The notes beneath the pieces were generated by a model, which saw only the letters and a list, made by a program, of their open reading frames with translations, was not told the origin of the DNA and did no database searches. 64,000 nt of DNA from Candidatus Woesebacteria bacterium (GTDB taxonomy: Bacteria > Patescibacteriota > Microgenomatia > UBA8517), in contig CP066693.1 of the NCBI GenBank assembly GCA_016432525.1, positions 785,639 to 849,638 on the forward strand. The letters are read 5' to 3'. The translations under genes and the position numbers were made by a program. Positions 4,027 through 40,646 of the stretch are shown here, in pieces; the stretch's first letter is position 1; each line of letters opens with the position of its first letter.

Positions 4027-5076
4027 GACTTCTATAAATTGAGCATAAATTTTCTCAATATCAAAAGTTAAAGCATGCTCATATCCTAGATCGCCCAATC
4101 TTTGTTGTAAGGCTGTGTCTCTCAAGAAAATATTCATCGAATTAATCCATTGTTTAGGATTAATAAATTCATTGACCAAAATCCCCCCTTTACCAATAGC
4201 TTCAGGTAAACCTCCAATATTACTCGCAATAACTGGTATTCTATTTACCATAGCTTCAACTGCAACTCTACCGAAACCTTCTTCCCATTGTGAGGGAACT
4301 AATAAAACTTTAGTCTTACCATAAACTTCTCTCATGTCATATTGACGATCAACTATGGTTACATTTTCAGAATTTCTAAATTCATCAGAGACACCACGCC
4401 ATCCCGAAACAACTAAAAATTGTTGACCAGGAAAGGCTTTAATTACTTCAAGCAAGATGTCTCCTCCTTTATCAGAAGTTGGATTCACCATTGTTATGTA
4501 TTGAGGATCAACTTTATCGCATTTATAACGATCAATAACCAATGGGCTATACAAAATCGAGGAGGGGCATTTTAAAAGAGGGCCAAAATGAGCCTCTGTG
4601 CTTCTGGAATTAAAGAATACATGAGAAATCTTTTCACTCTCATTTATTGGCAAATAATTAAACGGGTGGTGATCGTGTACAAATAAAACCGTTTTCAGTC
4701 CAAGAGATGAAGCAATGTCAATTACTCTATGAGAGAGATTTAACTGAGTCAAAACTATATCCGGGCGACTTTCTGAAAGCATAGTTCTAAGATCACCTTC
4801 AAATAATTCATCTTTTACAAGAACGCATTTATAACTATCTGGATTTGTGTATTCAATTCTTTCTGGACTTGAACTTGTAACAGATACTCCTCTACTCAAA
4901 AGCTGATCAACTATCTGCTCTGATGTTTCTTTAAAGTCAGGATTGTCTATTTTCCCAACAGCTACTACTTCTTGCCTATCAGAGTGAAGTCCGTTGAGTA
5001 AATCGTTTATAGCAATACCGTCACCCCCTTGAAAAAGTGGGTATTGTCTACGACCATTTGCAAAAACTTCTTTCAT
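4000..5076 (-). CDS. glycosyltransferase family 4 (GT-B)
   Basis: EGFGRVAVEAMVNRIPVIASNIGGLPE (EX7E motif). Start moved to the internal ATG (MKEVF...) so it abuts the upstream stop at 5078. Confidence 0.8.
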   Translation of the reverse strand: MKEVFANGRRQYPLFQGGDGIAINDLLNGLHSDRQEVVAVGKIDNPDFKETSEQIVDQLLSRGVSVTSSSPERIEYTNPDSYKCVLVKDELFEGDLRTMLSESRPDIVLTQLNLSHRVIDIASSLGLKTVLFVHDHHPFNYLPINESEKISHVFFNSRSTEAHFGPLLKCPSSILYSPLVIDRYKCDKVDPQYITMVNPTSDKGGDILLEVIKAFPGQQFLVVSGWRGVSDEFRNSENVTIVDRQYDMREVYGKTKVLLVPSQWEEGFGRVAVEAMVNRIPVIASNIGGLPEAIGKGGILVNEFINPKQWINSMNIFLRDTALQQRLGDLGYEHALTFDIEKIYAQFIEVLNRIHGVS

Positions 5077-5077
5077 C

Positions 5078-6109
5078 TTATAAATCCTCCTTTGTGTAAT
5101 AATCAGATAATTTTTGTAAATAAAGAACAATTTGAGCACGAATCCCAGTAACTATATGTTTGCCGACTTGACCTGACATGTCTACATTTCCTATCTGATC
5201 ATTTCTACCGGACATACTTTCTTGGTGAAATTTTTTAGTTGTTACAGGAAATCTTTCTGCTATCCAAATCATATTATTCTTCTTAGCCTGAAGCATAATT
5301 TTCTGATTAAAACCATCGTCTTCAAAAGAAGGTTCGGGAGGATATCTAAGCCACGATAAAAGATCTACGGGAAACATTCCAGATAGAATATTAAGACCTT
5401 TATCAAATACTTCAGCTAATGAATTTACTTCAGGAAAGCTTGAGTCCCAGTCTCTTGGGTTAGGTACATGAATTATACTTTTATCTATTTGATGTATTTC
5501 TGAATCGGCAAAACCATGAGCGATATATAAACCTTTTGATTTTGCTAATCTAGAATTTGCGACTTTGAATAATTCTCTTAAACTATTTTCTCCATACAAT
5601 TTGTCATCTGAATCTACCACTAAAACATAACCTGGATCATTAACTTGTCCACGCTTTGCATAATGGACAAAGTCTAGTCCAAAATTTCTTACAGGTGAGG
5701 CTGATCCAGTTTCTTCTAAATATGATACATGTAAAACTCTGTCATCTTTAAACTCAGCTACCACTCTTTTAGTTTCTTCATCTTCCCCATTATCAATAAT
5801 TACCCAATTCCAATCCACACTTCCAGTTTGTGCAGCCAAAAACTTATAAGCATTTGCCAGTGAATCGGATCTTTCTTTAGTTGCAGTTACAATGGTAATG
5901 GGAGCTTGTGAATTTCGTAATACTTCGATAGCATTATTCCTCTGCTCAAGTGTTTTAATACCCTCCATAGTGGCTCTCAAAGCGTCAGGAAATATCTTTT
6001 TTGACAAAGAATCTACTGAGATAGTTTTAGTGTCTGAATAATAACTTAGTCTATGCTCCAAAAAGGCTTGTTCAGATGCAAGATATGCCCATTTATCGGT
6101 TTCTTTCAT
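5078..6109 (-). CDS. glycosyltransferase family 2
   Basis: GT-A signatures ITIVTATKER, NWVIIDNGEDEE and VVDSDD (DxD). Confidence 0.6.
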   Translation of the reverse strand: MKETDKWAYLASEQAFLEHRLSYYSDTKTISVDSLSKKIFPDALRATMEGIKTLEQRNNAIEVLRNSQAPITIVTATKERSDSLANAYKFLAAQTGSVDWNWVIIDNGEDEETKRVVAEFKDDRVLHVSYLEETGSASPVRNFGLDFVHYAKRGQVNDPGYVLVVDSDDKLYGENSLRELFKVANSRLAKSKGLYIAHGFADSEIHQIDKSIIHVPNPRDWDSSFPEVNSLAEVFDKGLNILSGMFPVDLLSWLRYPPEPSFEDDGFNQKIMLQAKKNNMIWIAERFPVTTKKFHQESMSGRNDQIGNVDMSGQVGKHIVTGIRAQIVLYLQKLSDYYTKEDL

Positions 6110-6148
6110 ATCGTGGTAGTATAAACCTTATAGGATTTATGAAGCAAA

Positions 6149-12097: not shown

Positions 12098-13144
12098 ATG
12101 CCCCAAATTGATAAAGACCTCACCCATAATTTGAAAAAAGCTGATTTAAGATATGTAACAGATACACAGATGGGCATAACCCGCAAAAAGAATGGCCACT
12201 TCAAATATTTTGATACCCACCAAAAACTCATAAAGACCAGCGCAACTCTTAAAAGAATCGAATCTCTTTCGATTCCTCCAGCTTGGAAAAATGTCTGGAT
12301 TTGTCCATCTCCTTCAGGATATCTACAGGCAACAGGCCTTGATAGTAAGAGTCGTAAACAATATATTTATCATCCAGAATGGACAAAAGTTTCCCAAGAA
12401 AAAAAATTCAACAAAGTAGTTTTCTTTGGCTACGCCCTCCCAACAATTAGAAACAAAGTTTACAAAGATATGTTAATAGAAGATCTTATAAAAGATAAAA
12501 TTATTGCAACAGTTATCTGGCTTTTAGAACACACATTCATTCGAATCGGAAACGAGGAGTATGTAAAAGATAATAATTCTTTTGGTCTGACCACTCTTCG
12601 CTCCCGCCATGTAAAAGTACGTGGAAAAAACATAAAATTTCAATTTCGCGGAAAAAGTGGAGTGGAGCAGTCAATAAGTATCACTCATCCTCGAATTGCC
12701 AAGATAATTAAAGAGTGCAGCCAGCTTCCTGGATATGAAATCTTTCAATATTTTGATGAAGGTGGTGAGCGTCATGCGATTAATTCTGAGGATGTAAATG
12801 AATATCTAAAATCCATAACTGGCGAATATATTACAGCCAAAGATTTTAGAACTTGGGGGGCAACCGTCCTTTGTGCGACTTCTCTCAAAGAAATCGGCCC
12901 CTCAAAAGGCGAAATCGAAGAAAAGAAAAATATATCCTCTGCTGTCAAAAAAGTTTCAAGCCATCTTCACAACACAGCCAAAGTCTGTAAAAACTACTAC
13001 ATTCATCCAACTGTTTTTGAAACTTATCAAAAAAATATACTAGTTCCACATTTCAATCGCATTTTTGGACAGAAAAACTCCAAAAATAAAGGTCTTGCCA
13101 AAAGTGAATATGCAACTTTAACTCTAATTCGAAGCTATTCCTAG
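12098..13144 (+). CDS. DNA topoisomerase IB (poxvirus-type)
   Basis: N-terminal FKYFD...IPPAW...LQATGLDSKSRKQYIYH and C-terminal catalytic-Tyr context CKNYYIHP. About 348 aa, as in bacterial TopIB. Confidence 0.75.
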   Translation: MPQIDKDLTHNLKKADLRYVTDTQMGITRKKNGHFKYFDTHQKLIKTSATLKRIESLSIPPAWKNVWICPSPSGYLQATGLDSKSRKQYIYHPEWTKVSQEKKFNKVVFFGYALPTIRNKVYKDMLIEDLIKDKIIATVIWLLEHTFIRIGNEEYVKDNNSFGLTTLRSRHVKVRGKNIKFQFRGKSGVEQSISITHPRIAKIIKECSQLPGYEIFQYFDEGGERHAINSEDVNEYLKSITGEYITAKDFRTWGATVLCATSLKEIGPSKGEIEEKKNISSAVKKVSSHLHNTAKVCKNYYIHPTVFETYQKNILVPHFNRIFGQKNSKNKGLAKSEYATLTLIRSYS

Positions 13145-13250: not shown

Positions 13251-14477
13251 ATGTATTCAAACAATCGATTTAAGTTTCGTCGTAGCCGTTTCGGCCATTC
13301 CAATCATGGTAGCTTTTATCGTGGAAACACAAGCCGTGGTAATTTTCGTAATGGAGGCAGAAAAAGTAAGCTTTTAGGCCAAGATATAAATATGTTTATA
13401 AAAAAGGCAAAGCCAATTGATCCAACAGAAACTCCCATTGCCCACTCAACTTTTAATGAATTTTTTCTTTCAGAAAGCTTAAAACAAAATATAGCAAAAA
13501 AAGGCTATGTTAAGCCTACCCCGATTCAAGATCAGGCAATTTCCCCAATCCTTAAAAACAAGGATTTAATGGGGACAGCCTCAACTGGAACAGGGAAAAC
13601 AGCAGCTTTCTTAATTCCAATCATAGATAAAATCTATAAAAACAAGAAAGATAAAGCCATAATTATAACCCCAACCCGCGAGCTTGCAGTCCAAATAAAC
13701 GATGAGCTTAAAAATCTATCATTTAACATGGGAATCTATTCAACTGTAGTTATAGGAGGAGAAAATATTAGAAATCAAATAAGATGCCTACAGAGAAACT
13801 CTCAAGTTGTCATTGGAACTCCGGGTAGGATCAAAGATCTTCTTAAAAGAAACGCCCTTTCTCTTAAAAATTTTTCAATCTTTGTCCTCGACGAAGTAGA
13901 CATGATGGTTGATATTGGTTTTATTCAGGATATTAAATATTTCATCTCTCTGCTTCCTCAAGTTCGTCAATCTTTGTTCTTTTCAGCAACTATTCCTCCA
14001 AAAGTCCAAGAATTACTTAAAACTTTTGTCAAAAATCCAATAACAATATCACTTAAAAAACAGGATACTTCAGAAAATGTTGACCAAAATATAGTAAGAG
14101 TTATAAATAAAAACAAAAAAATCGAGCAATTACACGAACTTTTGATTAAAGATGGATTTGATAAAGTTTTAATCTTTGGACGTACTAAACACGAAATTGA
14201 AAGATTAAACAAAGAGTTAATTTCAAGAGGTTTTAAATCAGGGTCAATTCATGGAAACAAAAGCCAAGGTCAAAGACAAAGAGTCTTACAAAACTTCAAA
14301 AAAAATAATCTTCAAATTCTTTTAGCTACAGACGTTGCCTCTCGTGGAATTGATATCGATAGTGTAACTCATGTCATAAATTACGATCTTCCTCAAACTT
14401 ACGAAGATTATATCCACAGAATTGGCCGCACAGGTCGCGCTAACAAAAAAGGCGTTGCTCTAACTTTTATTGACTAA
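13251..14477 (+). CDS. DEAD-box ATP-dependent RNA helicase
   Basis: Q-motif and Walker A GTASTGTGKTAAF, TPTRELA, DEVD (motif II), SAT, and HRIGRTGRA (motif VI). Has an RG-rich N-terminal extension. Confidence 0.85.
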   Translation: MYSNNRFKFRRSRFGHSNHGSFYRGNTSRGNFRNGGRKSKLLGQDINMFIKKAKPIDPTETPIAHSTFNEFFLSESLKQNIAKKGYVKPTPIQDQAISPILKNKDLMGTASTGTGKTAAFLIPIIDKIYKNKKDKAIIITPTRELAVQINDELKNLSFNMGIYSTVVIGGENIRNQIRCLQRNSQVVIGTPGRIKDLLKRNALSLKNFSIFVLDEVDMMVDIGFIQDIKYFISLLPQVRQSLFFSATIPPKVQELLKTFVKNPITISLKKQDTSENVDQNIVRVINKNKKIEQLHELLIKDGFDKVLIFGRTKHEIERLNKELISRGFKSGSIHGNKSQGQRQRVLQNFKKNNLQILLATDVASRGIDIDSVTHVINYDLPQTYEDYIHRIGRTGRANKKGVALTFID

Positions 14478-16971: not shown

Positions 16972-17955
16972 ATGCTAATTCCTCCAAGATATGAGCTTAC
17001 TCCAGAGCTAGTTTCACTTCTCAATTCAATTGAAGCTTCCCGTCAGGTTATAGATTCAATTGAAATTCCCCTAGAAATTGAACAAAATATTCGCCGAGTC
17101 GAAAATCTTAAAAGCTCTCTTTTCTCTGCCAGAATTGAAGGAAACAATCTTAATCTTGAAGATCTACAAAATCCTTCAAAAACTCAAAAAAAAGCAGAGG
17201 TTTTAAATATTTTAAAAGCTATGAACTTTTTAAAAGAAAAGCAAAAAAAAGATATAACCACAGCTGAAATGCTTGCTCTTCACAAAATTACCATGAATGG
17301 TTTAATTGATGGACAAAATTTAGGAGTTTTTAGAAAAAACATGGAAGCAATTTTTAATTCAGCCGGAATTGCAATTTTTATGCCTCCTTCACCAAAACAA
17401 GTGCCTTCTTTAATAGAAAAATTGATTAAATTTATAAATTCAGACAAAGAGCGTTTTGCACCAATTAAAGCATCTCTTACTCACTACACTTTTGAAAAAA
17501 TTCACCCCTTTTTAGATGGCTCAGGCCGAGTGGGACGCCTTTTAATCCAAAAAATTCTTTACAAAGAAGGCTTTGGCATGAAAGGACTTTTATCTCTTGA
17601 AGAATATCTTGATAATCACAGATCTACTTATTACAGAATGCTTGAAGAGCCAGAAAAAGAACTCACAGATTACTTAATTTTTATGCTTACTGCAATTTCT
17701 GAGACTGCTCTAAAAGCAAAAGAATTAGTCCAGCAAAAACAAAAAGTCGAAGTTGAAGATTATCTCCTTCCAAGAAGAGCTGAAATTTTAAGAATCATAA
17801 AAGATCAAAAAATAGTTAACTTTGACCAAATCAGAAGGCGCTTTATGGCAGTAAACCCCAGAACTTTAAGATATGACTTAAAAAAACTTCAGGATGCAAA
17901 TTTGATTAGAAAACTTGGAACCACCAATGGAGTTTATTATGAGGAACAAAAATAA
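16972..17955 (+). CDS. Fic-family protein (AMPylase-type) with C-terminal wHTH
   Basis: Fic motif HPFLDGSGRVGRL (HxFx[DE]GNGRxxR with N to S), plus a C-terminal winged-helix-like segment. Confidence 0.75.
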   Translation: MLIPPRYELTPELVSLLNSIEASRQVIDSIEIPLEIEQNIRRVENLKSSLFSARIEGNNLNLEDLQNPSKTQKKAEVLNILKAMNFLKEKQKKDITTAEMLALHKITMNGLIDGQNLGVFRKNMEAIFNSAGIAIFMPPSPKQVPSLIEKLIKFINSDKERFAPIKASLTHYTFEKIHPFLDGSGRVGRLLIQKILYKEGFGMKGLLSLEEYLDNHRSTYYRMLEEPEKELTDYLIFMLTAISETALKAKELVQQKQKVEVEDYLLPRRAEILRIIKDQKIVNFDQIRRRFMAVNPRTLRYDLKKLQDANLIRKLGTTNGVYYEEQK

Positions 17956-29228: not shown

Positions 29229-29659
29229 TTGCTTACAACTCCATAAGAATTAACGCTCAAAGTTTTTGTAGTTCCAAGACCAGATATTGTAATTGCAGCA
29301 GTTGTGTTGGGAATTCCAGTTACTCTGGCAAAATTAATATCGCTTGCCCCGGTTACCAAAATCTTTGGATTTATTCTAACCTTCTCATCAAAACTAGAGT
29401 TTCGAGTCAAATAAGAATTCCCTTGATAAATGGTAACAATTCCAGAAGCAATATTTACTCCCCACCCGGTAGATGCACTTTTACGACTTACAATTGAATA
29501 AAATTGTGCAGTCGAAAAAGCAGTTGTTAGTTGATTAACAGTTGAAGCTACATCATTTTGGGTTAAAAATCTGGAATAAAAAGATGAGGACAAAATCGCA
29601 ATGGTTGAGATTATCGCAACTACCAATAGTAGCTCTATAAGCGTAAATCCTTTTTTCAT
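29225..29659 (-). CDS. prepilin-type pilin
   Basis: MKKGFTLIELLLVVAIIS. Confidence 0.7.
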   Translation of the reverse strand: MKKGFTLIELLLVVAIISTIAILSSSFYSRFLTQNDVASTVNQLTTAFSTAQFYSIVSRKSASTGWGVNIASGIVTIYQGNSYLTRNSSFDEKVRINPKILVTGASDINFARVTGIPNTTAAITISGLGTTKTLSVNSYGVVSK

Positions 29660-30720
29660 TGTCTAATAGATCCAGTAAATTGATAGATTGGGGAAATTAT
29701 AGAAAGTGCCAAAAATGAAACAAACAAGGCAATTATTATAAGTAAAACTGGCTCAATGACAGAAGGTAAGTTCTGTGCCATATCATCAACCTCCTCCTCA
29801 AAAAAATTTGAAAGGTATAAAAGTGATTCAGATAATTTTCCCGATTTTTCTCCTACTCCAATCATTCTCGTCATAACAGCTGGCATATGTTTAAAGTTAC
29901 GCCTGGTGATTTCCTTTTCAATACTAACTCCTTTATCAACAGCCTTAGAAATTAAACTTATATATCCCTTAAAAACAAGATTCGAGGTAGCAGCCGTTGT
30001 TGCTACCATTGCCTCAGAAATTGGAATCCCGCTTTTAAGCATTACCCCAAGATTACGACAAAAATTTGTAATCTCCACACTCATTATAAAATTTCCAAAA
30101 AAAGGTATCCTCAAAACAAATCTCTGCCATCTAAGCTTAATTTTTGGAATATCGATAGCAACCCAAAAAATAATAAAGCCGCCAACTAAAAAGGCAACAA
30201 TAAAAATCCCGTAGTTCTTCATTGTATTTGCAAAAAATAGAAGTATTTTAGTAGAAAGAGGAAGCGCTACATCTAAAGATTCAAAAAGGTCAGTTAACTT
30301 TGGAAGAACAAAAATAGAAATTCCTCCTCCAACAATAATGGCAGCAATCACGATAATTGTTGGATAAATTAAAGCTGCTCTGACTTTTTTTCTAAATTCG
30401 TAATTTTTGGATAATTGGCTAGCCAGATACTCCAAATTAGCATCCAAATTTCCAGATTCTTCTCCTATTGCAATAATACTGACAAAAAGCTTATCAAAAA
30501 CATCTGGGTATTTCTCTAAACTTTTTGAAAGTTTTAGACCATTTTTTAAATCATTCAAAATTCCCAACAATATTTTCTTAAATGCTTTGTTGCGGCTTTG
30601 CTCATACAAAATATTTACAGAATCATAAATAGTAATACCGCTCTTAAGCATTACAGAAAGATGTTTTGCAAATAAAAGCTTGTCAACAAATCTTACCTCA
30701 CTTAAACCGGGCAGTTTCAT
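29656..30720 (-). CDS. pilC: type IV pilus platform protein PilC (GspF family)
   Basis: Two GspF-domain repeats with three transmembrane segments. Immediately downstream of the PilB ATPase. Confidence 0.85.
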   Translation of the reverse strand: MKLPGLSEVRFVDKLLFAKHLSVMLKSGITIYDSVNILYEQSRNKAFKKILLGILNDLKNGLKLSKSLEKYPDVFDKLFVSIIAIGEESGNLDANLEYLASQLSKNYEFRKKVRAALIYPTIIVIAAIIVGGGISIFVLPKLTDLFESLDVALPLSTKILLFFANTMKNYGIFIVAFLVGGFIIFWVAIDIPKIKLRWQRFVLRIPFFGNFIMSVEITNFCRNLGVMLKSGIPISEAMVATTAATSNLVFKGYISLISKAVDKGVSIEKEITRRNFKHMPAVMTRMIGVGEKSGKLSESLLYLSNFFEEEVDDMAQNLPSVIEPVLLIIIALFVSFLALSIISPIYQFTGSIRQ

Positions 30721-30724
30721 TTTT

Positions 30725-32401
30725 TTACTCCTTGGTAACTCTAATTATCTCATCTATAGTCGTTTGTCCTTCAAGTACCTTAATGAGACCATCTTCTATT
30801 AGTGTGCTCATCCCTTCTTTTATTGCACAATCTCTCAACTTATCACTATCTGCCTTACTCGTTATAAGATCACGAATCGCATCTGTTACAGCAAGAACCT
30901 CGAATATTCCAATTCGTCCGTTATATCCAGTCATGTTGCAGACACTGCATCCTTTTCCAGCATAAATTCGGGCCTCGCGATTTTTAGTATGCTTCTTTAA
31001 AAGATCGGGAGGAAAAAACTTCTTAAGCTCAGTTGCAGTTATGCTTTGTGATTTTCTGCATTTCTCACAAATTTTACGAACCAATCGCTGCCCTACAATG
31101 ACATTGATCGTTGAAGCAACCAAAAAAGGCTCCACGCCCATATCAATAAGGCGAGGCAATGTCGTTGCCGCGTCGTTTGTATGAAGCGTTGAAAGAACCA
31201 AATGCCCAGTCAGAGCTGAATTAACCGCAATATCTGCCGTTTCTGAATCTCTAATCTCCCCTACAAAAATCACATTTGGATCTTGCCTTAAAATCGCCCG
31301 TAATCCATTAGCAAAAGTTAGGCTGGTTTTAGAATTAACTTGAATTTGGTTGACCCCTTCAATGTCATATTCAACAGGGTCCTCAATACTTGCAATGTTC
31401 ACAGATCTTACATTTAAAATTTTCAAAATAGTATAAATTGTTGTCGTCTTTCCACATCCAGTAGGACCTGTTGACAAAAACATTCCATAAGGTTTATTAA
31501 ATCCATCTCTCACTTTTTTTAAGTCAGGCTCTCTCATTCCTAAATCATCAAGACGGTACTGCCTAGACCTTGAAGAAAGTAACCTCATAACAACTTTTTC
31601 ACCATTGACAATAGGTACTATAGAAACACGAATGTCCAAATCTTCACTAGGTAAAGTTAGTTGCATCTTTCCATCTTGTGCTGCCAAATGTTCATCAGTT
31701 CGAAGTTTAGATGAAACCTTAATCTTTGTAACAAGTTGATCATGAATGTTTTTGGGAAATCTTAATACTTCGTGTAAAACTCCATCAATCCTAAATCTCA
31801 CAACAGATGTCTTCTTCTCAGGCTCAATATGGATATCAGACGCGCGGTTTGAATATGCATATTCAATCAATAGATCGGATAGTCTCGCAATAGGAAGTTC
31901 ACTTGATTTACTTTCAGAAGCCGCAAGTATCTCTTTAGTTAAAAGTTCATCAAAACTTGCCTGTAAATTTTTTCTGTACAAAGAAAACGCCTCATCTATA
32001 TCTTTTTTTGTTGCAAAATAAACTTTAACTTTCTCCCCTGTTTTTTTGGAAATAAATCCCATGATTTCGCGATTAACAGGATAATCAGCAGCTACTTTTA
32101 TTCCATCCTTTTCCAAACCAAAACATATTATTCTCTGTTTTCTAGCAATAACTTCAGGGATAATTTTTAAAACATTTTCTTCAATATGCTCTTTAGAAAG
32201 ATTAGCGTAAGGCACCTTAAAAAGATCAGCTATAACTTTTCCCAAATTCTCATCAGAAATTAAGTCCCGATCTATAAGTTCATCATAAAAATCAATTTTG
32301 TTTGTAACGCTCTCTTTATAAGCCAAATCAAGCTTGGAAGATTCAATAACAGAAAGTTCCTTTAATGCTAAATACAAACTTTGATTATCATAAACCCCCA
32401 T
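30725..32401 (-). CDS. pilB: type IV pilus assembly ATPase PilB (GspE family)
   Basis: Walker A GPTGCGKTTT, Asp/His boxes, and tetracysteine CEKC...CSVC. Confidence 0.9.
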   Translation of the reverse strand: MGVYDNQSLYLALKELSVIESSKLDLAYKESVTNKIDFYDELIDRDLISDENLGKVIADLFKVPYANLSKEHIEENVLKIIPEVIARKQRIICFGLEKDGIKVAADYPVNREIMGFISKKTGEKVKVYFATKKDIDEAFSLYRKNLQASFDELLTKEILAASESKSSELPIARLSDLLIEYAYSNRASDIHIEPEKKTSVVRFRIDGVLHEVLRFPKNIHDQLVTKIKVSSKLRTDEHLAAQDGKMQLTLPSEDLDIRVSIVPIVNGEKVVMRLLSSRSRQYRLDDLGMREPDLKKVRDGFNKPYGMFLSTGPTGCGKTTTIYTILKILNVRSVNIASIEDPVEYDIEGVNQIQVNSKTSLTFANGLRAILRQDPNVIFVGEIRDSETADIAVNSALTGHLVLSTLHTNDAATTLPRLIDMGVEPFLVASTINVIVGQRLVRKICEKCRKSQSITATELKKFFPPDLLKKHTKNREARIYAGKGCSVCNMTGYNGRIGIFEVLAVTDAIRDLITSKADSDKLRDCAIKEGMSTLIEDGLIKVLEGQTTIDEIIRVTKE

Positions 32402-36687: not shown

Positions 36688-37079
36688 ATCCCTTCGCAAT
36701 AATCTTGGCCGCTATTACATCGCAAGTTTTAGGTTTTTTCTGGTATTCTCAAATGTTTTTTGGAAAAGAGTGGGTAAAACTTTCTGGCCACAAGAATTCA
36801 GAAAAAATGAAAAAAGAAGAAGGCAAGATCTATACTCTCAATTTCCTTTTGACTCTTTTAGAAGCTTTTATTCTTTCAAGATTCATGGCTCTTTCTCAAG
36901 CTCGTACAATATTAGAAGGAACACAAGTTGGATTTATGGCTTGGCTTGGTTTTACGCTAACTTCTATGCTTACAACAAACCTTTTTCAGAATAAGCCCAA
37001 AAAACTTTTTTACATAGACGCAGCTTATCAAATGGTTGCAATTATGGTAATGGGAGCAATTTTGGCTCTACTTTCTTAA
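36684..37079 (+). CDS. DUF1761-family membrane protein
   Basis: MNPFAIILAAITSQVLGFFWYSQMFFGKEW, the characteristic DUF1761 N-terminus. Four transmembrane segments. Confidence 0.55.
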   Translation: MNPFAIILAAITSQVLGFFWYSQMFFGKEWVKLSGHKNSEKMKKEEGKIYTLNFLLTLLEAFILSRFMALSQARTILEGTQVGFMAWLGFTLTSMLTTNLFQNKPKKLFYIDAAYQMVAIMVMGAILALLS

Positions 37080-37901
37080 GAAATAAATATCCTGATTATA
37101 TTCAGAAACTCCAACCTTTTCTCCTTCACCTTTCAATATCCTTTCTAAACCCATACAATTTCTACATCCTCCATATGGACATTTAAATACTTCAAGCTGG
37201 CGCGCAAGTTTGATTTTCTTTCCTACTTCAAATATGTATTCTTCCGACTTCTTCTCATCAGGTAAATTTACCTCTCGCGGCCCTTCATCTTTATCTAAAT
37301 ACCAATACGATGCACCATTAATTTGTCTATTTTGTAAGTTTTTTGAAAGCAAATAATAAATCGGGAGTTGTAAAGACTCCTCGCTTTCCTCATTTTTTCC
37401 AGTTTTGAAATCCAGAATGTGAACAGAATCATTTGTCTCGTCATAAATAAGCCAATCAATCTTTCCACACAAAATTATATTGTCAGGTTCAGAAAGCCAA
37501 TAGTATGGAAGTCCTCCATCAGCTCTAATTTTTATTGTTTTTTTCAAAAGTGGACCAGGATTTTCCTCGAGTTTTCTGATCATTGAAAATCCGCGGCTTC
37601 GGTATTCCGATTCCTCTTCTAAACTTACAAATCCACCTTGCTTGCCACTTACTTTTTGCCAAGCAACATCAAATTTTTGAGTGGGCTTTATTGTAAATCT
37701 GTCCTCAACTGCCAAAGTTGACATTGATTCAATTACTTCATGTACTATCATACCCAGTGTAAGCGCCGGGCTTCCAATTGTAATCTTATGTCCAGTTCTT
37801 GGATCTTTATAAACATTACGAAGAAAGTAAAGCCTGGGACATTTCAAATAATCTGAAATGGAGCTGTGAGAAAGCCATACTGCTTTAAATTTGTCCTTCA
37901 T
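37068..37901 (-). CDS. PD-(D/E)XK nuclease, Cas4/RecB-like with predicted Fe-S cluster
   Basis: Motifs D (GKIDWL), DxK (ILDFKTGK) and QxxxY (QLPIYYLL). One N-terminal Cys (YLKCP) and three C-terminal Cys (CPYGGCRNC), the Cas4/AddB pattern. Confidence 0.65.
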   Translation of the reverse strand: MKDKFKAVWLSHSSISDYLKCPRLYFLRNVYKDPRTGHKITIGSPALTLGMIVHEVIESMSTLAVEDRFTIKPTQKFDVAWQKVSGKQGGFVSLEEESEYRSRGFSMIRKLEENPGPLLKKTIKIRADGGLPYYWLSEPDNIILCGKIDWLIYDETNDSVHILDFKTGKNEESEESLQLPIYYLLSKNLQNRQINGASYWYLDKDEGPREVNLPDEKKSEEYIFEVGKKIKLARQLEVFKCPYGGCRNCMGLERILKGEGEKVGVSEYNQDIYFLRK

Positions 37902-39238
37902 AAACTAATCTCATCATAAAGCTTGGGACAGACTACGTCGTTAAGCTTCAAATCAGCCTTTATTTTCTCAGACAAAATATTCCTTGATTCATCTTCTCCG
38001 TGAATCAAAAATACTTTGGAAACTCCTTGTATTTTGGAAAGCCAATTTATTAGTTTCGGCTGATCGGCGTGCGCGCTCATTCCAGAAGATTTTCTCACAT
38101 GTGACCTAATTTCAACTTCCTCGCCATAGATTCTTACCTTCGTAGCTCCATCTAAAATCCTTCTTCCCAAAGTACCTGTTGCTTGAAACCCAACTAATAA
38201 AAGTCTTGTTGTCTCAATAGGAAAATAAGTCATTGCATGATTCAAAATTCTTCCTCCATGCATCATTCCGCTTCCTGCAATTATAACTTTAGCGCCAGTT
38301 TTGTCTTTAATTTTTTCGCTTTCATGGAAGTCTTCAATCATTGTTAGTCCTGGAAAATCAAACGGGTCATCAGTCCCATGATTTTTCAGTTCAGTACTGT
38401 ACAAATCTTTAAACCTTTTATAAATCTGTGTAGTTTTAATCGCCATCGGGCTATCCAAGTAAACAGGAGTTGAATCTTGTACCTTTTTATTTTTCTTCAA
38501 ATGATCAATTATATGAAGAATCTCTTGGGATCTTTCAATCGAAAAAGCAGGAATTAGTAAAGCTCCACCCGACTTTTCAATCTCATTAATTTCTTCAGCT
38601 AGAACTTCCTTTGGATCTTCTTTTGCATGGATGCGATCTCCATAAGTTGATTCCATCAAAACAAATGCCGCATTAGCTATATTTTCAGTAGGTTTAAGTA
38701 AATCCTCAGGTGTATTTCCCAAATCTCCGCTAAATGCAATTTTTGTATTATCAACATTCATTTCAATTGAAGCTGATCCTAAAATGTGCCCTGCATCAAT
38801 TAGATTGATTTCGAATTCAAAAATACTAAAACTTTTGTGGTAATCAACAATCTCAGCATTATATATAAGTCTCCGGACGTCTTCTTCGGTATACAAAATT
38901 GGGTGCGATCCATGACCTTCTTTTCCCACCTTGGCAGCATCCAAAAGAGTCAGCTCAAAAAGAGCACGTGTAGCCTCAGTCATATAAATTTTGCCATTAA
39001 ATCCATTCATCGTCAAAAGAGGAAGCCTTCCACAGTGATCCAAATGTGCATGAGTTAGTATTACTCCAGATAAATTTCTAGGATCAAATTTCAAATCTGC
39101 AAAATTAAGCTGCGTTGTCTCTTCCTCTCCCTGAAACATTCCCATATCAACCAAAACTGTTTTGCCTGAGTTTGCTGTAACCAAAAACGAAGATCCAGTA
39201 ACAGTACCGGAAGCCCCTAAGAATTTTATTTTAGCCAT
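37898..39238 (-). CDS. MBL-fold beta-CASP nuclease (RNA-metabolising metallo-beta-lactamase)
   Basis: HAHLDHCG motif 2, plus downstream Asp/His motifs spaced as in beta-CASP proteins. About 446 aa. Overlaps the Cas4-like gene by 4 nt. Confidence 0.8.
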   Translation of the reverse strand: MAKIKFLGASGTVTGSSFLVTANSGKTVLVDMGMFQGEEETTQLNFADLKFDPRNLSGVILTHAHLDHCGRLPLLTMNGFNGKIYMTEATRALFELTLLDAAKVGKEGHGSHPILYTEEDVRRLIYNAEIVDYHKSFSIFEFEINLIDAGHILGSASIEMNVDNTKIAFSGDLGNTPEDLLKPTENIANAAFVLMESTYGDRIHAKEDPKEVLAEEINEIEKSGGALLIPAFSIERSQEILHIIDHLKKNKKVQDSTPVYLDSPMAIKTTQIYKRFKDLYSTELKNHGTDDPFDFPGLTMIEDFHESEKIKDKTGAKVIIAGSGMMHGGRILNHAMTYFPIETTRLLLVGFQATGTLGRRILDGATKVRIYGEEVEIRSHVRKSSGMSAHADQPKLINWLSKIQGVSKVFLIHGEDESRNILSEKIKADLKLNDVVCPKLYDEISL

Positions 39239-39288: not shown

Positions 39289-39573
39289 TTACTTCTTTGC
39301 CCATTTATTCCAAATTAAGGCAAATACATAACCCATCACATATCCAACCAAAGATGTAAAAACAACTAAAATTAACGCTGTAGTCAAAGAAAATTGACTA
39401 ACAACAAATGGGTTACTCAAAAAATGTAGATTATATACAAAATCCAAAATTGTTTGGGCAAATCCGAAACTCACGGCCAAACCCCATAAAGCATGCATTA
39501 AGCCCATAAAAACTCCTGTTGCGATTGCAACTTCCTGCGCTTTAAGTTTCTTCATTTTCTCACCCCCAATCAA
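39289..39573 (-). CDS. hypothetical small membrane protein
   Basis: Three predicted transmembrane segments. Confidence 0.3.
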   Translation of the reverse strand: MIGGEKMKKLKAQEVAIATGVFMGLMHALWGLAVSFGFAQTILDFVYNLHFLSNPFVVSQFSLTTALILVVFTSLVGYVMGYVFALIWNKWAKK

Positions 39574-39614: not shown

Positions 39615-40325
39615 TCAATCTATTTCACCTTTTAAATACTTTTTTCGCTCAAGATCTGGAAATCTCTCAATTGAATATCTAAGAGCAGTTCTAGGTATAT
39701 TTTCATAATTTTCTTTCAAAAATTTCTTCAACAAAGTTATATCTTTTTTCCCAACTTCCCTTAAAACCCAACCAACTGCTTTGTGAATTAAATCGTGTTT
39801 ATCTGATAAAAGTATTTTGGAAATTTTTAAAGTATCGTTAAAATCACTTTGGGCAATATAATAAAACGTGGAAATTATAGAAATTCTTCTTTCCCAAAGG
39901 CTTTTGGAAGTTGCTAGTTTATATAAAATTTTTCTGTCCTTTTTATCTAAATAAGCTCCAACAATATCTCTACAAGTTACATCCACCAAATCCCAATTAT
40001 TAATATATTTCGTATTATTCAAATATATTTCAAAAATCGTTTTTTGAAGTTTTGAATCAGCTTTTTGAAATTTTTCAAGAAGAATCAAAAGTGCAATCAT
40101 TCTCTCCTCATGCCATTTTGATTTAAGAAATTTTTGAGTGTCAGGCAGACTCAAGTCTTTATACTTTTTAACAATTGCCCGAGTGGTAGGAAGAGTAATT
40201 CCCAAGAATTTATCCCCCTCGCCATATTGCCCAACTCCTGTCTTAAAAAACCTCATCAAAGCCTTTGCTCTTTTTGGATCAGCGCTCCCCTTAATTTCAG
40301 CTCTTATTTCAGTTAGTTTACTCAA
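39615..40325 (-). CDS. DNA alkylation repair enzyme (AlkC/AlkD-like HEAT-repeat glycosylase)
   Basis: N-terminal pattern LTEIRAEIKGSADPKRAKALMRFFKTGVGQYGEGDKFLGI is typical of this family. About 236 aa. Confidence 0.65.
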   Translation of the reverse strand: MSKLTEIRAEIKGSADPKRAKALMRFFKTGVGQYGEGDKFLGITLPTTRAIVKKYKDLSLPDTQKFLKSKWHEERMIALLILLEKFQKADSKLQKTIFEIYLNNTKYINNWDLVDVTCRDIVGAYLDKKDRKILYKLATSKSLWERRISIISTFYYIAQSDFNDTLKISKILLSDKHDLIHKAVGWVLREVGKKDITLLKKFLKENYENIPRTALRYSIERFPDLERKKYLKGEID

Positions 40326-40349: not shown

Positions 40350-40646
40350 TTATCTTCTCTCCTTAAAAGACGGGCATTCTGGTTTAACTCCCAATTCTGT
40401 TTCCTCATATAACTTTAAAGGTGAAACTCCAGCGGTACATCGCAAAGAAACCACATCTTTTCCATCTTTATGACCAAATTCCAATTTTAAATTAGCACAA
40501 CTCCCACAAATTCCACACAAAGCTCTTAACCTATGAGAATTCTCCTCTCTCGCCTCAGTATGAGTTCTCGATCTGGGTTTGTAAGATCCAGAAATATGTG
40601 AGCGTACAGTCTCTTTTGCCTTTCTTATATTTTCCAAACTCTCCAT
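40350..40646 (-). CDS. hypothetical Cys-rich small protein
   Basis: CGICGSC...C...C pattern; possibly a zinc ribbon. No family assigned. Confidence 0.3.
   Translation of the reverse strand: MESLENIRKAKETVRSHISGSYKPRSRTHTEAREENSHRLRALCGICGSCANLKLEFGHKDGKDVVSLRCTAGVSPLKLYEETELGVKPECPSFKERR

Follow-up and report, generated by a model that had tools for sequence, protein, structure and literature searches.

Two nuclease genes lie in tandem on the minus strand of a 64,000-nucleotide stretch (referred to here as the window) of contig CP066693.1 from a Candidatus Woesebacteria genome, at positions 785,639 to 849,638. The upstream gene encodes a 446-residue β-CASP metallo-β-lactamase (MBL) nuclease, and the downstream gene a 277-residue Cas4-like Fe-S nuclease of the PD-(D/E)XK type. 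An original prediction, made from the sequence alone, saw in the two a compact module for DNA-end processing or repair, or else a pair related to defence. The analysis presented here indicates instead that they are probably two independently conserved housekeeping genes, which are neighbours in this Woesebacteria sub-lineage and are probably co-transcribed there, and that they do not constitute a dedicated two-nuclease system. Only a few related lineages have the two side by side, and each gene is of a known kind. The genes are considered independent because both families are large and conserved on their own, because they are found together in only three of 80 loci sampled from the nuclease side and in none of 80 sampled from the β-CASP side, and because the nuclease has no conserved neighbour.

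A protein search with the nuclease returned 5810 matches at E ≤ 1e-3, and the best 120 of these (274–306 residues, 59–73% identity) come nearly all from Patescibacteria. A relative is encoded in at least 445 stretches of species-representative genomes, and after clustering at 50% the family comprises 81 representatives with E ≤ 1e-30; it is extremely conserved and widespread in Microgenomates. The β-CASP protein gave at least 8000 matches and is widely and strongly conserved in Patescibacteria by itself, the best 120 matches of each search being 55–73% identical to the query. Gene neighbourhoods were compared in two samples: 80 nuclease loci from species-representative genomes (homologues 54–67% identical, with 6-kb flanks where available), and 80 β-CASP loci from metagenomes (homologues 35–60% identical, 5-kb flanks). 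In the first sample a β-CASP gene lies within 6 kb of the nuclease at three loci (loci from other genomes are given L numbers throughout), directly upstream at L003 and L043 and 2 kb away at L013; in the second, no nuclease homologue was found within 5 kb of the β-CASP gene. The same neighbour method recovered a SLOG-cluster4 partner of the β-CASP gene, described further below, in 17 of 63 assessable loci (21 by tblastn), and it is therefore able to detect real partners.

On the nuclease side, clustering of all open reading frames (ORFs) of the 80 loci brought out no conserved partner. The commonest neighbour is a class II aminoacyl-tRNA synthetase, present at 17 loci; others that recur are an LCP protein, TspO, membrane proteins, an RNase_H_2 exonuclease and unassigned ORFs. 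The exonuclease, an RNase_H_2/PolB-exo-like 3'-5' enzyme (1.6e-12), is found at 15 of the 80 loci (for example L006:3985-4662), three genes upstream of the nuclease and separated from it by two uncharacterised ORFs. These recurrent neighbours are lineage-specific blocks that are uninformative on function, and the exonuclease is no general partner.

The pair persists in the loci most closely related to the window, namely L084, L081 and L082/L083, where β-CASP identity is 84%, 72% and 64% respectively. In L081–L084 the wider region is syntenic as well, with TypA, NAGPA, ATP-cone, GH15, PAP2, AlkD and cupredoxin genes, a histidine kinase and response regulators. L003, L165 and L166 have NAGPA, Obg and cupredoxin genes in common with the region, while the genes directly flanking the pair differ. 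At L013 a gene for a 656-residue β-propeller protein has been inserted between the β-CASP and nuclease genes; L001, which encodes the closest homologue of the window nuclease (67% identity), is unpaired; and at L043 (Woesebacteria GW2011_GWC1_42_9, 4636-5977) the nuclease gene is intact and the β-CASP gene is split across two frames near residues 200–207, which points either to a pseudogene or to an error of assembly. When the nucleases were placed in a neighbour-joining tree, paired loci turned up at three positions, all within one half, with unpaired loci among them. The simplest reading is of a single ancestral juxtaposition in a slowly rearranging region, retained where nothing has been inserted into the very short spacer. 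The two genes are thus largely not syntenic in other genomes, contrary to what a functional operon of this kind would lead one to expect, and where the pair persists in close relatives it does so amid region-wide synteny.

Several observations weigh against so simple an account. The tree on which paired and unpaired loci were placed bears no support values; tight adjacency (−4 to about +17 nucleotides) persists across lineages in which β-CASP identity is just 56%; and the direct flanks differ among the window, L003/L165 and L043 even though the pair stays adjacent. Such kept adjacency lends some support to selection for co-expression in this clade. In a genome of some 900 genes, two given genes would be neighbours by chance in roughly 0.2% of cases, and either one ancestral event or selection is needed to account for the juxtaposition.

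At the junction, AGTTTATGAAGG, the TGA stop codon of the β-CASP gene and the ATG of the nuclease gene share the letters ATGA, an overlap of 4 nucleotides; both ORFs and the overlap are where the original prediction had placed them. Its further proposal was that the genes are translationally coupled. Co-transcription is physically plausible, and the genes are probably on one transcript in this lineage, possibly with termination–reinitiation at the ATGA. The overlap, on the other hand, is not distinctive, because it is common in the window: of 58 neighbouring pairs on the same strand, 8 share exactly 4 nucleotides and 35 lie within 20 nucleotides of each other, functionally unrelated neighbours (the CHRD-like and DUF1761 genes, for example) being among them. 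Nor is the overlap itself conserved, since the spacing across paired loci varies (−4, −4, 0, +12, +16 and about +17 nucleotides). The nuclease gene is flanked by the β-CASP gene on one side and the DUF1761 gene on the other. Scans of the interval 36.5–41 kb gave counts at or near chance both for promoters (17, against 15.6 expected) and for terminators (6, against 2.4 expected), and these say nothing on operon boundaries.

It could be argued that within the Woesebacteria sub-clade the two genes have nevertheless become a unit, in which a β-CASP RNase and a nuclease acting on single-stranded DNA (ssDNA) are translationally coupled, produced in constant proportion and jointly active; their targets could be, for instance, RNA–DNA hybrids or R-loops, primers and flaps, or imported nucleic acids degraded to salvage nucleotides. 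In its favour are the ATGA overlap and the lack of an intergenic terminator between the two genes, the complete active sites of both enzymes, and the spacing of −4 to about +17 nucleotides kept in the window, L084, L081, L082/L083, L003/L165 and L043 despite differing flanks. The unit is nonetheless unlikely, given that the pair is so rare in both samples of 80 loci, that it is missing from L001 and interrupted by an inserted gene in L013, and that in L043 the β-CASP gene is frameshifted while the nuclease is intact. Moreover, regional synteny suffices to explain its retention, 4-nucleotide overlaps are common between unrelated genes of the window, and the predicted substrates differ, being RNA for one enzyme and ssDNA for the other. 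The specific proposal that the sub-clade pair became translationally coupled on a shared substrate, whether RNA–DNA hybrids and flaps or imported nucleic acids for salvage, must be considered quite improbable. A literature search turned up no account of a Cas14/CPSF-73-like RNase paired with a Cas4-family nuclease other than in CRISPR (clustered regularly interspaced short palindromic repeat) or Argonaute systems.

The identity of the β-CASP protein bears directly on this question. As the original prediction had suggested it would, the protein matches the Pfam families Lactamase_B (1.7e-16, residues 13–184), Beta-Casp (1.2e-33, residues 238–361) and RMMBL (1.5e-10, residues 375–437). In a search of the PDB the best match is TTHA0252 (7.5e-77), aligned end to end (residues 6–421 with 5–408), followed by Cas14 (2.6e-63), CPSF-73 (3.3e-48), Integrator-11 and archaeal aCPSF1/FttA. 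TTHA0252 of Thermus thermophilus (PDB 2DKF; Ishikawa et al. 2006) is of similar length (431 residues against 446) and has the same MBL, β-CASP and RMMBL domains with no extra ones, and all its metal ligands and motifs A–C align with the window protein. Residues H63, H65, D67, H68, H151, D172, E235, H390 and H413, which make up MBL motifs 2–4 and β-CASP motifs A, B and C, are invariant in an alignment of 25 β-CASP sequences and match those of TTHA0252. Motif C is His in the RNA-processing β-CASP enzymes and Val in those that process DNA, Artemis, SNM1 and PSO2 among them (PMC3095777); the window protein has His at this position, in common with CPSF-73, aCPSF1 (FttA) and RNase J, which belong to the same RNA-processing branch. 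TTHA0252 has been shown to be an RNase and takes part in mRNA decay; it acts as a 5'-3' exoribonuclease, and its disruption alters the levels of about 200 mRNAs (PMC4229858). The Patescibacteria protein, from another phylum, is assigned by sequence.

All NCBIfam matches of the β-CASP protein fall under their cutoffs, and other assignments were considered and set aside. A DNA-processing β-CASP enzyme (Artemis/SNM1/PSO2, or the ligase-associated exonuclease TIGR04122) is ruled out by His413, by the RMMBL domain and by a TIGR04122 score of 60.6 bits against a cutoff of 325. The Cas14 model NF045584, for the type VII effector (PDB 8YHD), gives 2.2e-116 but only 389.7 bits against a cutoff of 800; the nuclease module aligns over profile positions 2–426 of 612, and membership is ruled out by the score, by the missing C-terminal part (some 190 positions of the model), and by the failure to find Cas7/Cas5 or an array. 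The aCPSF1 model gives 289.6 bits against 580 in a match that begins at profile position 176, and membership here is ruled out by the cutoff and by the missing N-terminal KH domains. Nor is the protein an RNase J, at 14.4 bits against 400. The protein is best read, from its sequence, as a TTHA0252-type (bacterial CPSF-73-like) RNase: with TTHA0252 as its best match, His at motif C and an RMMBL domain, it is expected to be a general RNase and not a processor of DNA ends. Two zinc ions would be held by H63/H65/D67/H68, H151, D172, H390 and H413, and by analogy with TTHA0252 the enzyme would degrade single-stranded RNA in the 5'-3' direction, possibly endonucleolytically too, in general mRNA turnover. 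A DNA-end substrate common to the β-CASP enzyme and the nuclease is unlikely, and nothing indicates that the two share a substrate. With the genes so seldom adjacent, the overlap commonplace and the β-CASP protein on the RNA branch, the proposed two-nuclease module for DNA-end processing or repair does not hold up.

The 277-residue protein is a Cas4-like Fe-S PD-(D/E)XK nuclease without CRISPR context, as originally predicted, and this is an accurate label for a known kind of gene. It matches PDDEXK_1 (PF12705) with 8e-20 and 72.3 bits, against a cutoff of 22, over residues 10–249 (profile positions 2–240 of 247). The Cas4 models proper fit less well: PF01930 (Cas_Cas4) gives 18.1 bits, under its cutoff of 22.7, and TIGR00372 (cas4, NCBIfam) gives 32.8 bits, under its cutoff of 65. 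The expected signature of an Fe-S RecB-family nuclease, with one N-terminal and three C-terminal Cys and the D, DxK and QxxxY motifs, is present in full: C21, C241, C246, C249, H54, D149, D164-x-K166 and Q178-xxx-Y182 show no variation either across an alignment of 26 sequences or among all 83 homologues from other genomes, so that there is no sign of loss of the Cys or catalytic residues. C145, shortly before D149, is conserved in 78 of the 83. The four invariant Cys residues are predicted to bind a [4Fe-4S] cluster, an 'iron staple' that would pin the N-terminal helix to the C-terminal region, while D149, D164 and K166 would hold the catalytic metal and Q178 and Y182 would help to place the substrate.

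An AlphaFold2 model of the nuclease built on the alignment has a mean predicted local distance difference test score (pLDDT) of 91.4 and a predicted template modelling (TM) score of 0.87. The top Foldseek matches of the model are to ACE1 (9iac/9iab, TM score 0.60–0.63) and the AdnA nuclease domain (0.55–0.57), then Dna2 and AddB; CRISPR Cas4 structures are weak matches (E above 1e-2). By sequence, the only solved structures within reach are again 9IAC and 9IAB (ACE1), at E of about 1e-3, and D164-x-K166 aligns with the DxK motif of ACE1. Beyond the Cys cluster the model has a helix (residues 250–256) and a β-hairpin of strands 261–265 and 270–274, all with pLDDT of about 88–94. This extension ends in SEYxQDIYxL, and its residues E253, D271 and Y273 are nearly invariant across the family. 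The consensus for peptides that bind the β-clamp is QL[SD]LF. That the QDIYxL tail might be such a peptide was considered and dropped, the sequence being a misfit to the consensus and the tail being placed by AlphaFold2 in an ordered β-hairpin packed on the domain. The positions of the features of both genes are collected in Table 1.

Table 1. Features of the β-CASP and Cas4-like nuclease genes, with positions in the window
Feature	Position	Strand	Basis
β-CASP gene, 446 aa	37898-39238	(-)	ORF list; Pfam; PDB match
MBL motif 2, HxHxDH codons (H63, H65, D67, H68; predicted Zn ligands)	39035-39052	(-)	read in sequence; alignment; TTHA0252
β-CASP motif B, H390	38069-38071	(-)	invariant; aligned to TTHA0252
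β-CASP motif C, H413	38000-38002	(-)	invariant; aligned to TTHA0252
ATGA stop/start overlap	37898-37901	(-)	read in sequence
Cas4-like nuclease gene, 277 aa	37068-37901	(-)	ORF list; Pfam; AlphaFold2 model
C21 codon, predicted N-terminal Fe-S ligand (YLKCP)	37839-37841	(-)	invariant in 83/83 homologues
Catalytic core: D149 (motif II), D164-x-K166 (motif III), Q178-xxx-Y182 (QhxxY)	37356-37457	(-)	invariant in 83/83
C241/C246/C249 codons, predicted C-terminal Cx4CxxC Fe-S ligands (CPYGGCRNC)	37155-37181	(-)	invariant in 83/83
C-terminal extension, residues 250-277	37071-37154	(-)	alignments; AlphaFold2 model

Among solved structures ACE1 is thus the best match of the nuclease by both sequence and fold. 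ACE1 is an Argonaute-associated enzyme of the Cas4 family, an ssDNA endonuclease that holds an Fe4S4 cluster through one N-terminal and three C-terminal Cys (PMC12094033). The two are alike in size (266–277 residues), in having a single PD-(D/E)XK domain with the D...DxK motif, and in the 1+3 Cys arrangement of the Fe4S4 'iron staple'. Sequence identity, however, is only 13–16%, and whereas ACE1 is found only in cyanobacteria, where it is always encoded together with a long-A prokaryotic Argonaute with which it forms a heterodimer, the nuclease described here is a vertically conserved Patescibacteria gene. The Argonaute operon that characterises ACE1 and ACE2 is not seen in the window, where the flanking genes are those for the β-CASP and DUF1761 proteins; nor is an Argonaute found among the annotated recurrent neighbours at the 80 nuclease loci, at which some flanking ORFs are unannotated. 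The Cas4 of CRISPR systems (TIGR00372/PF01930; SSO0001 and type I-C Cas4) shares the RecB motifs, the four Cys and a related fold, but the window protein lies under both curated cutoffs, its fold match is weak, and no cas1/cas2 or array was found.

These resemblances raise the question of whether the pair could serve in defence against phages or plasmids, as a solo-Cas4 or ACE-like nuclease acting with a Cas14-like β-CASP effector. In PADLOC the nuclease gives weak matches to Cas4 and Argonaute-associated Cas4-like nuclease models (1e-6 to 6e-9), its nearest solved structure is that of a defence accessory protein, and the β-CASP protein matches the Cas14 model and structures as described above. 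Solo-Cas4 proteins have been proposed to work in defence (PMC12094033), which also counts in favour. Such a role is nevertheless highly improbable: the Cas14 and cas4 scores fall far under their cutoffs, the search of the surroundings yielded no Argonaute, Cas7/Cas5, Cas1/Cas2 or CRISPR array, the neighbours are housekeeping genes, and the pair is no mobile unit. Both genes also look vertically inherited and strongly conserved, judging from the best 120 matches of each, unlike defence genes with their fast turnover.

The wider context is consistent with this. The original prediction that CRISPR context is lacking proved sound: Tandem Repeats Finder and a search for spaced direct repeats located no CRISPR array in the 64 kb; PADLOC, applied to the pair and three neighbours, yielded no cas or defence gene beyond the generic Cas4 and Argonaute-associated Cas4-like similarity of the nuclease itself; and no cas1/cas2, Cas7/Cas5 or Argonaute gene was found among the annotated neighbours. 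When all 78 ORFs of the window were submitted to PADLOC, only generic helicase, Fic and exonuclease matches resulted, far from the pair, and an Rfam scan of the window gave no family, tRNA included, at its gathering score. The surroundings are housekeeping genes and no defence island. They include genes for PilB and PilC, a PAS/GAF histidine kinase with three receiver proteins, a cupredoxin and TypA/BipA; cysteinyl-tRNA synthetase, another class II aminoacyl-tRNA synthetase, DnaX, RecR, ribosome recycling factor and ribosomal protein S2; and FolD, serine hydroxymethyltransferase, ThyA, dihydrofolate reductase, thymidine kinase, thymidylate kinase, a MacB/HlyD transporter and an M50 protease. 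Neither a defence-related pair nor defence-island neighbours, both of which had been envisaged, find any counterpart here. The alkylation-repair gene noted at the outset as a neighbour of the pair is real (an AlkD-type DNA_alkylation gene, 5.8e-61, 39615-40325), but it lies two genes upstream, with a short ORF intervening, and is kept only in L082/L083, which are two contigs of one close relative.

A different role, which concerns the nuclease alone, is suggested by its structural relatives. AdnA/AdnB, AddB and Dna2 share with it the fold, the Fe-S ligand pattern and the catalytic motifs, and a predicted substrate of ssDNA threaded through a narrow channel. They differ in that their nuclease domains are fused to superfamily 1 helicases in proteins of about 1000 residues or more, whereas the nuclease here is a free-standing protein of 277 residues. 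It may be that the nuclease is the resection component of a split AddAB/AdnAB-like machine and the main end-processor of the reduced genomes found in the candidate phyla radiation (CPR), the β-CASP protein being irrelevant to it. Its likeness in fold to AdnA's and AddB's nuclease domains and to Dna2 would be in keeping with this, as would the extreme conservation and wide distribution of the family in Microgenomates. Hudaiberdiev et al. 2017 (PMC5704561) reported that solo Cas4-like genes are over-represented in CPR genomes, and described helicase–nuclease fusions for PF12705. Remoter relatives of the nuclease are embedded within proteins of 769–1297 residues, which would fit such fusions. Against this, the nuclease is a single domain of 277 residues, unlike AddAB, AdnAB or RecBCD, and no helicase figures among its recurrent neighbours in the 80 loci. 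A literature search on the absence of RecBCD/AddAB from Patescibacteria yielded nothing usable. The idea is possible but doubtful as it stands; it is compatible, and partly overlaps, with the interpretation of the two genes as independent housekeeping genes.

Hudaiberdiev et al. also found that Cas4-like genes are mostly vertically inherited and that the pfam12705 branch is not linked to CRISPR (PMC5704561). The window protein, which fits PF12705 far better than PF01930 and is not CRISPR-associated, resembles these pfam12705 Cas4-like proteins and the solo-Cas4 of CPR; Hudaiberdiev et al. are silent on a Microgenomates family of 275–280 residues, on the C-terminal extension and on any link to a β-CASP gene. 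For two independent housekeeping genes in a reduced Woesebacteria (Patescibacteria/CPR) genome of about 0.9 Mb, the following division of labour may be proposed. While the β-CASP enzyme turned over mRNA, the nuclease, by homology to ACE1, AdnA, AddB, Dna2 and Cas4, would cut ssDNA ends or flaps at a D-D-x-K metal site lying in a channel that the Fe4S4 staple stabilises. For any unwinding it would depend on a helicase encoded elsewhere, and the role of the nuclease is therefore probably in recombination or repair.

Some other features of the window may be recorded. Between the AlkD-type and β-CASP genes lies an ORF for a hydrophobic protein of 94 residues (39289-39573, minus strand) with no family match; it has no match in L081–L083, and in L082/L083 no gene is called between AlkD and β-CASP. 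A Cys-rich ORF of 98 residues (CGICGSC; 40350-40646, minus strand) has no Pfam, NCBIfam or PADLOC match, and is 73% identical in L084. A type IB topoisomerase gene (12098-13144, plus strand; Topoisom_I 1.9e-40, Top1B_N_bact 2.1e-21) adjoins a DEAD-box helicase gene (13251-14477, plus strand), which is the probable source of the generic Cas3/DpdF/Drm matches in PADLOC. Likewise, the PADLOC SoFic match (6.6e-54) probably stems from a Fic-domain protein (16972-17955, plus strand; Pfam 1.4e-18), whose gene lies 19 kb away from the pair. The type IV pilus genes form a run with 4-nucleotide overlaps along it, comprising a 144-residue ORF, PilC (29656-30720) and PilB (30725-32401); directly downstream on the same strand is an ORF of 581 residues (27483-29228, minus strand) with no Pfam family at 1e-5. 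A 343-residue glycosyltransferase ORF lies in 5140-6148. GC skew is negative in all 2-kb bins but one, and most genes of the window are on the minus strand.

The partner gene that served as positive control deserves separate mention. TTHA0252-like β-CASP genes of other lineages, whose products are 39–43% identical to the window protein, frequently precede a gene for a SLOG-cluster4/LOG-like protein of about 200 residues, which lies on the same strand directly downstream of the β-CASP gene, usually within about 100 nucleotides, and matches PF18306 (LDcluster4; best 1.4e-36). The arrangement is seen at L090:5001-6958 and at some 20 metagenome loci (L091-093, 095, 097, 099, 100, 102-104, 107, 109-111, 113, 118, 122, 144, 150 and 151). 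Neither the window nor any of the nuclease loci has the SLOG-cluster4 gene, and a full-text literature search retrieved no paper containing the term 'LDcluster4'. The β-CASP RNase and SLOG genes look like a genuine conserved pair.

The result takes a plausible-looking two-nuclease operon out of the running as a new system of repair or defence, and it illustrates that in the densely packed genomes of CPR bacteria a 4-nucleotide overlap is no evidence of functional coupling. The association of the β-CASP RNase with a SLOG protein is perhaps a more promising lead than the nuclease pair. If it were true that the Cas4-like nuclease is the end-processor of these reduced genomes, a gap in the knowledge of CPR DNA repair would be filled.

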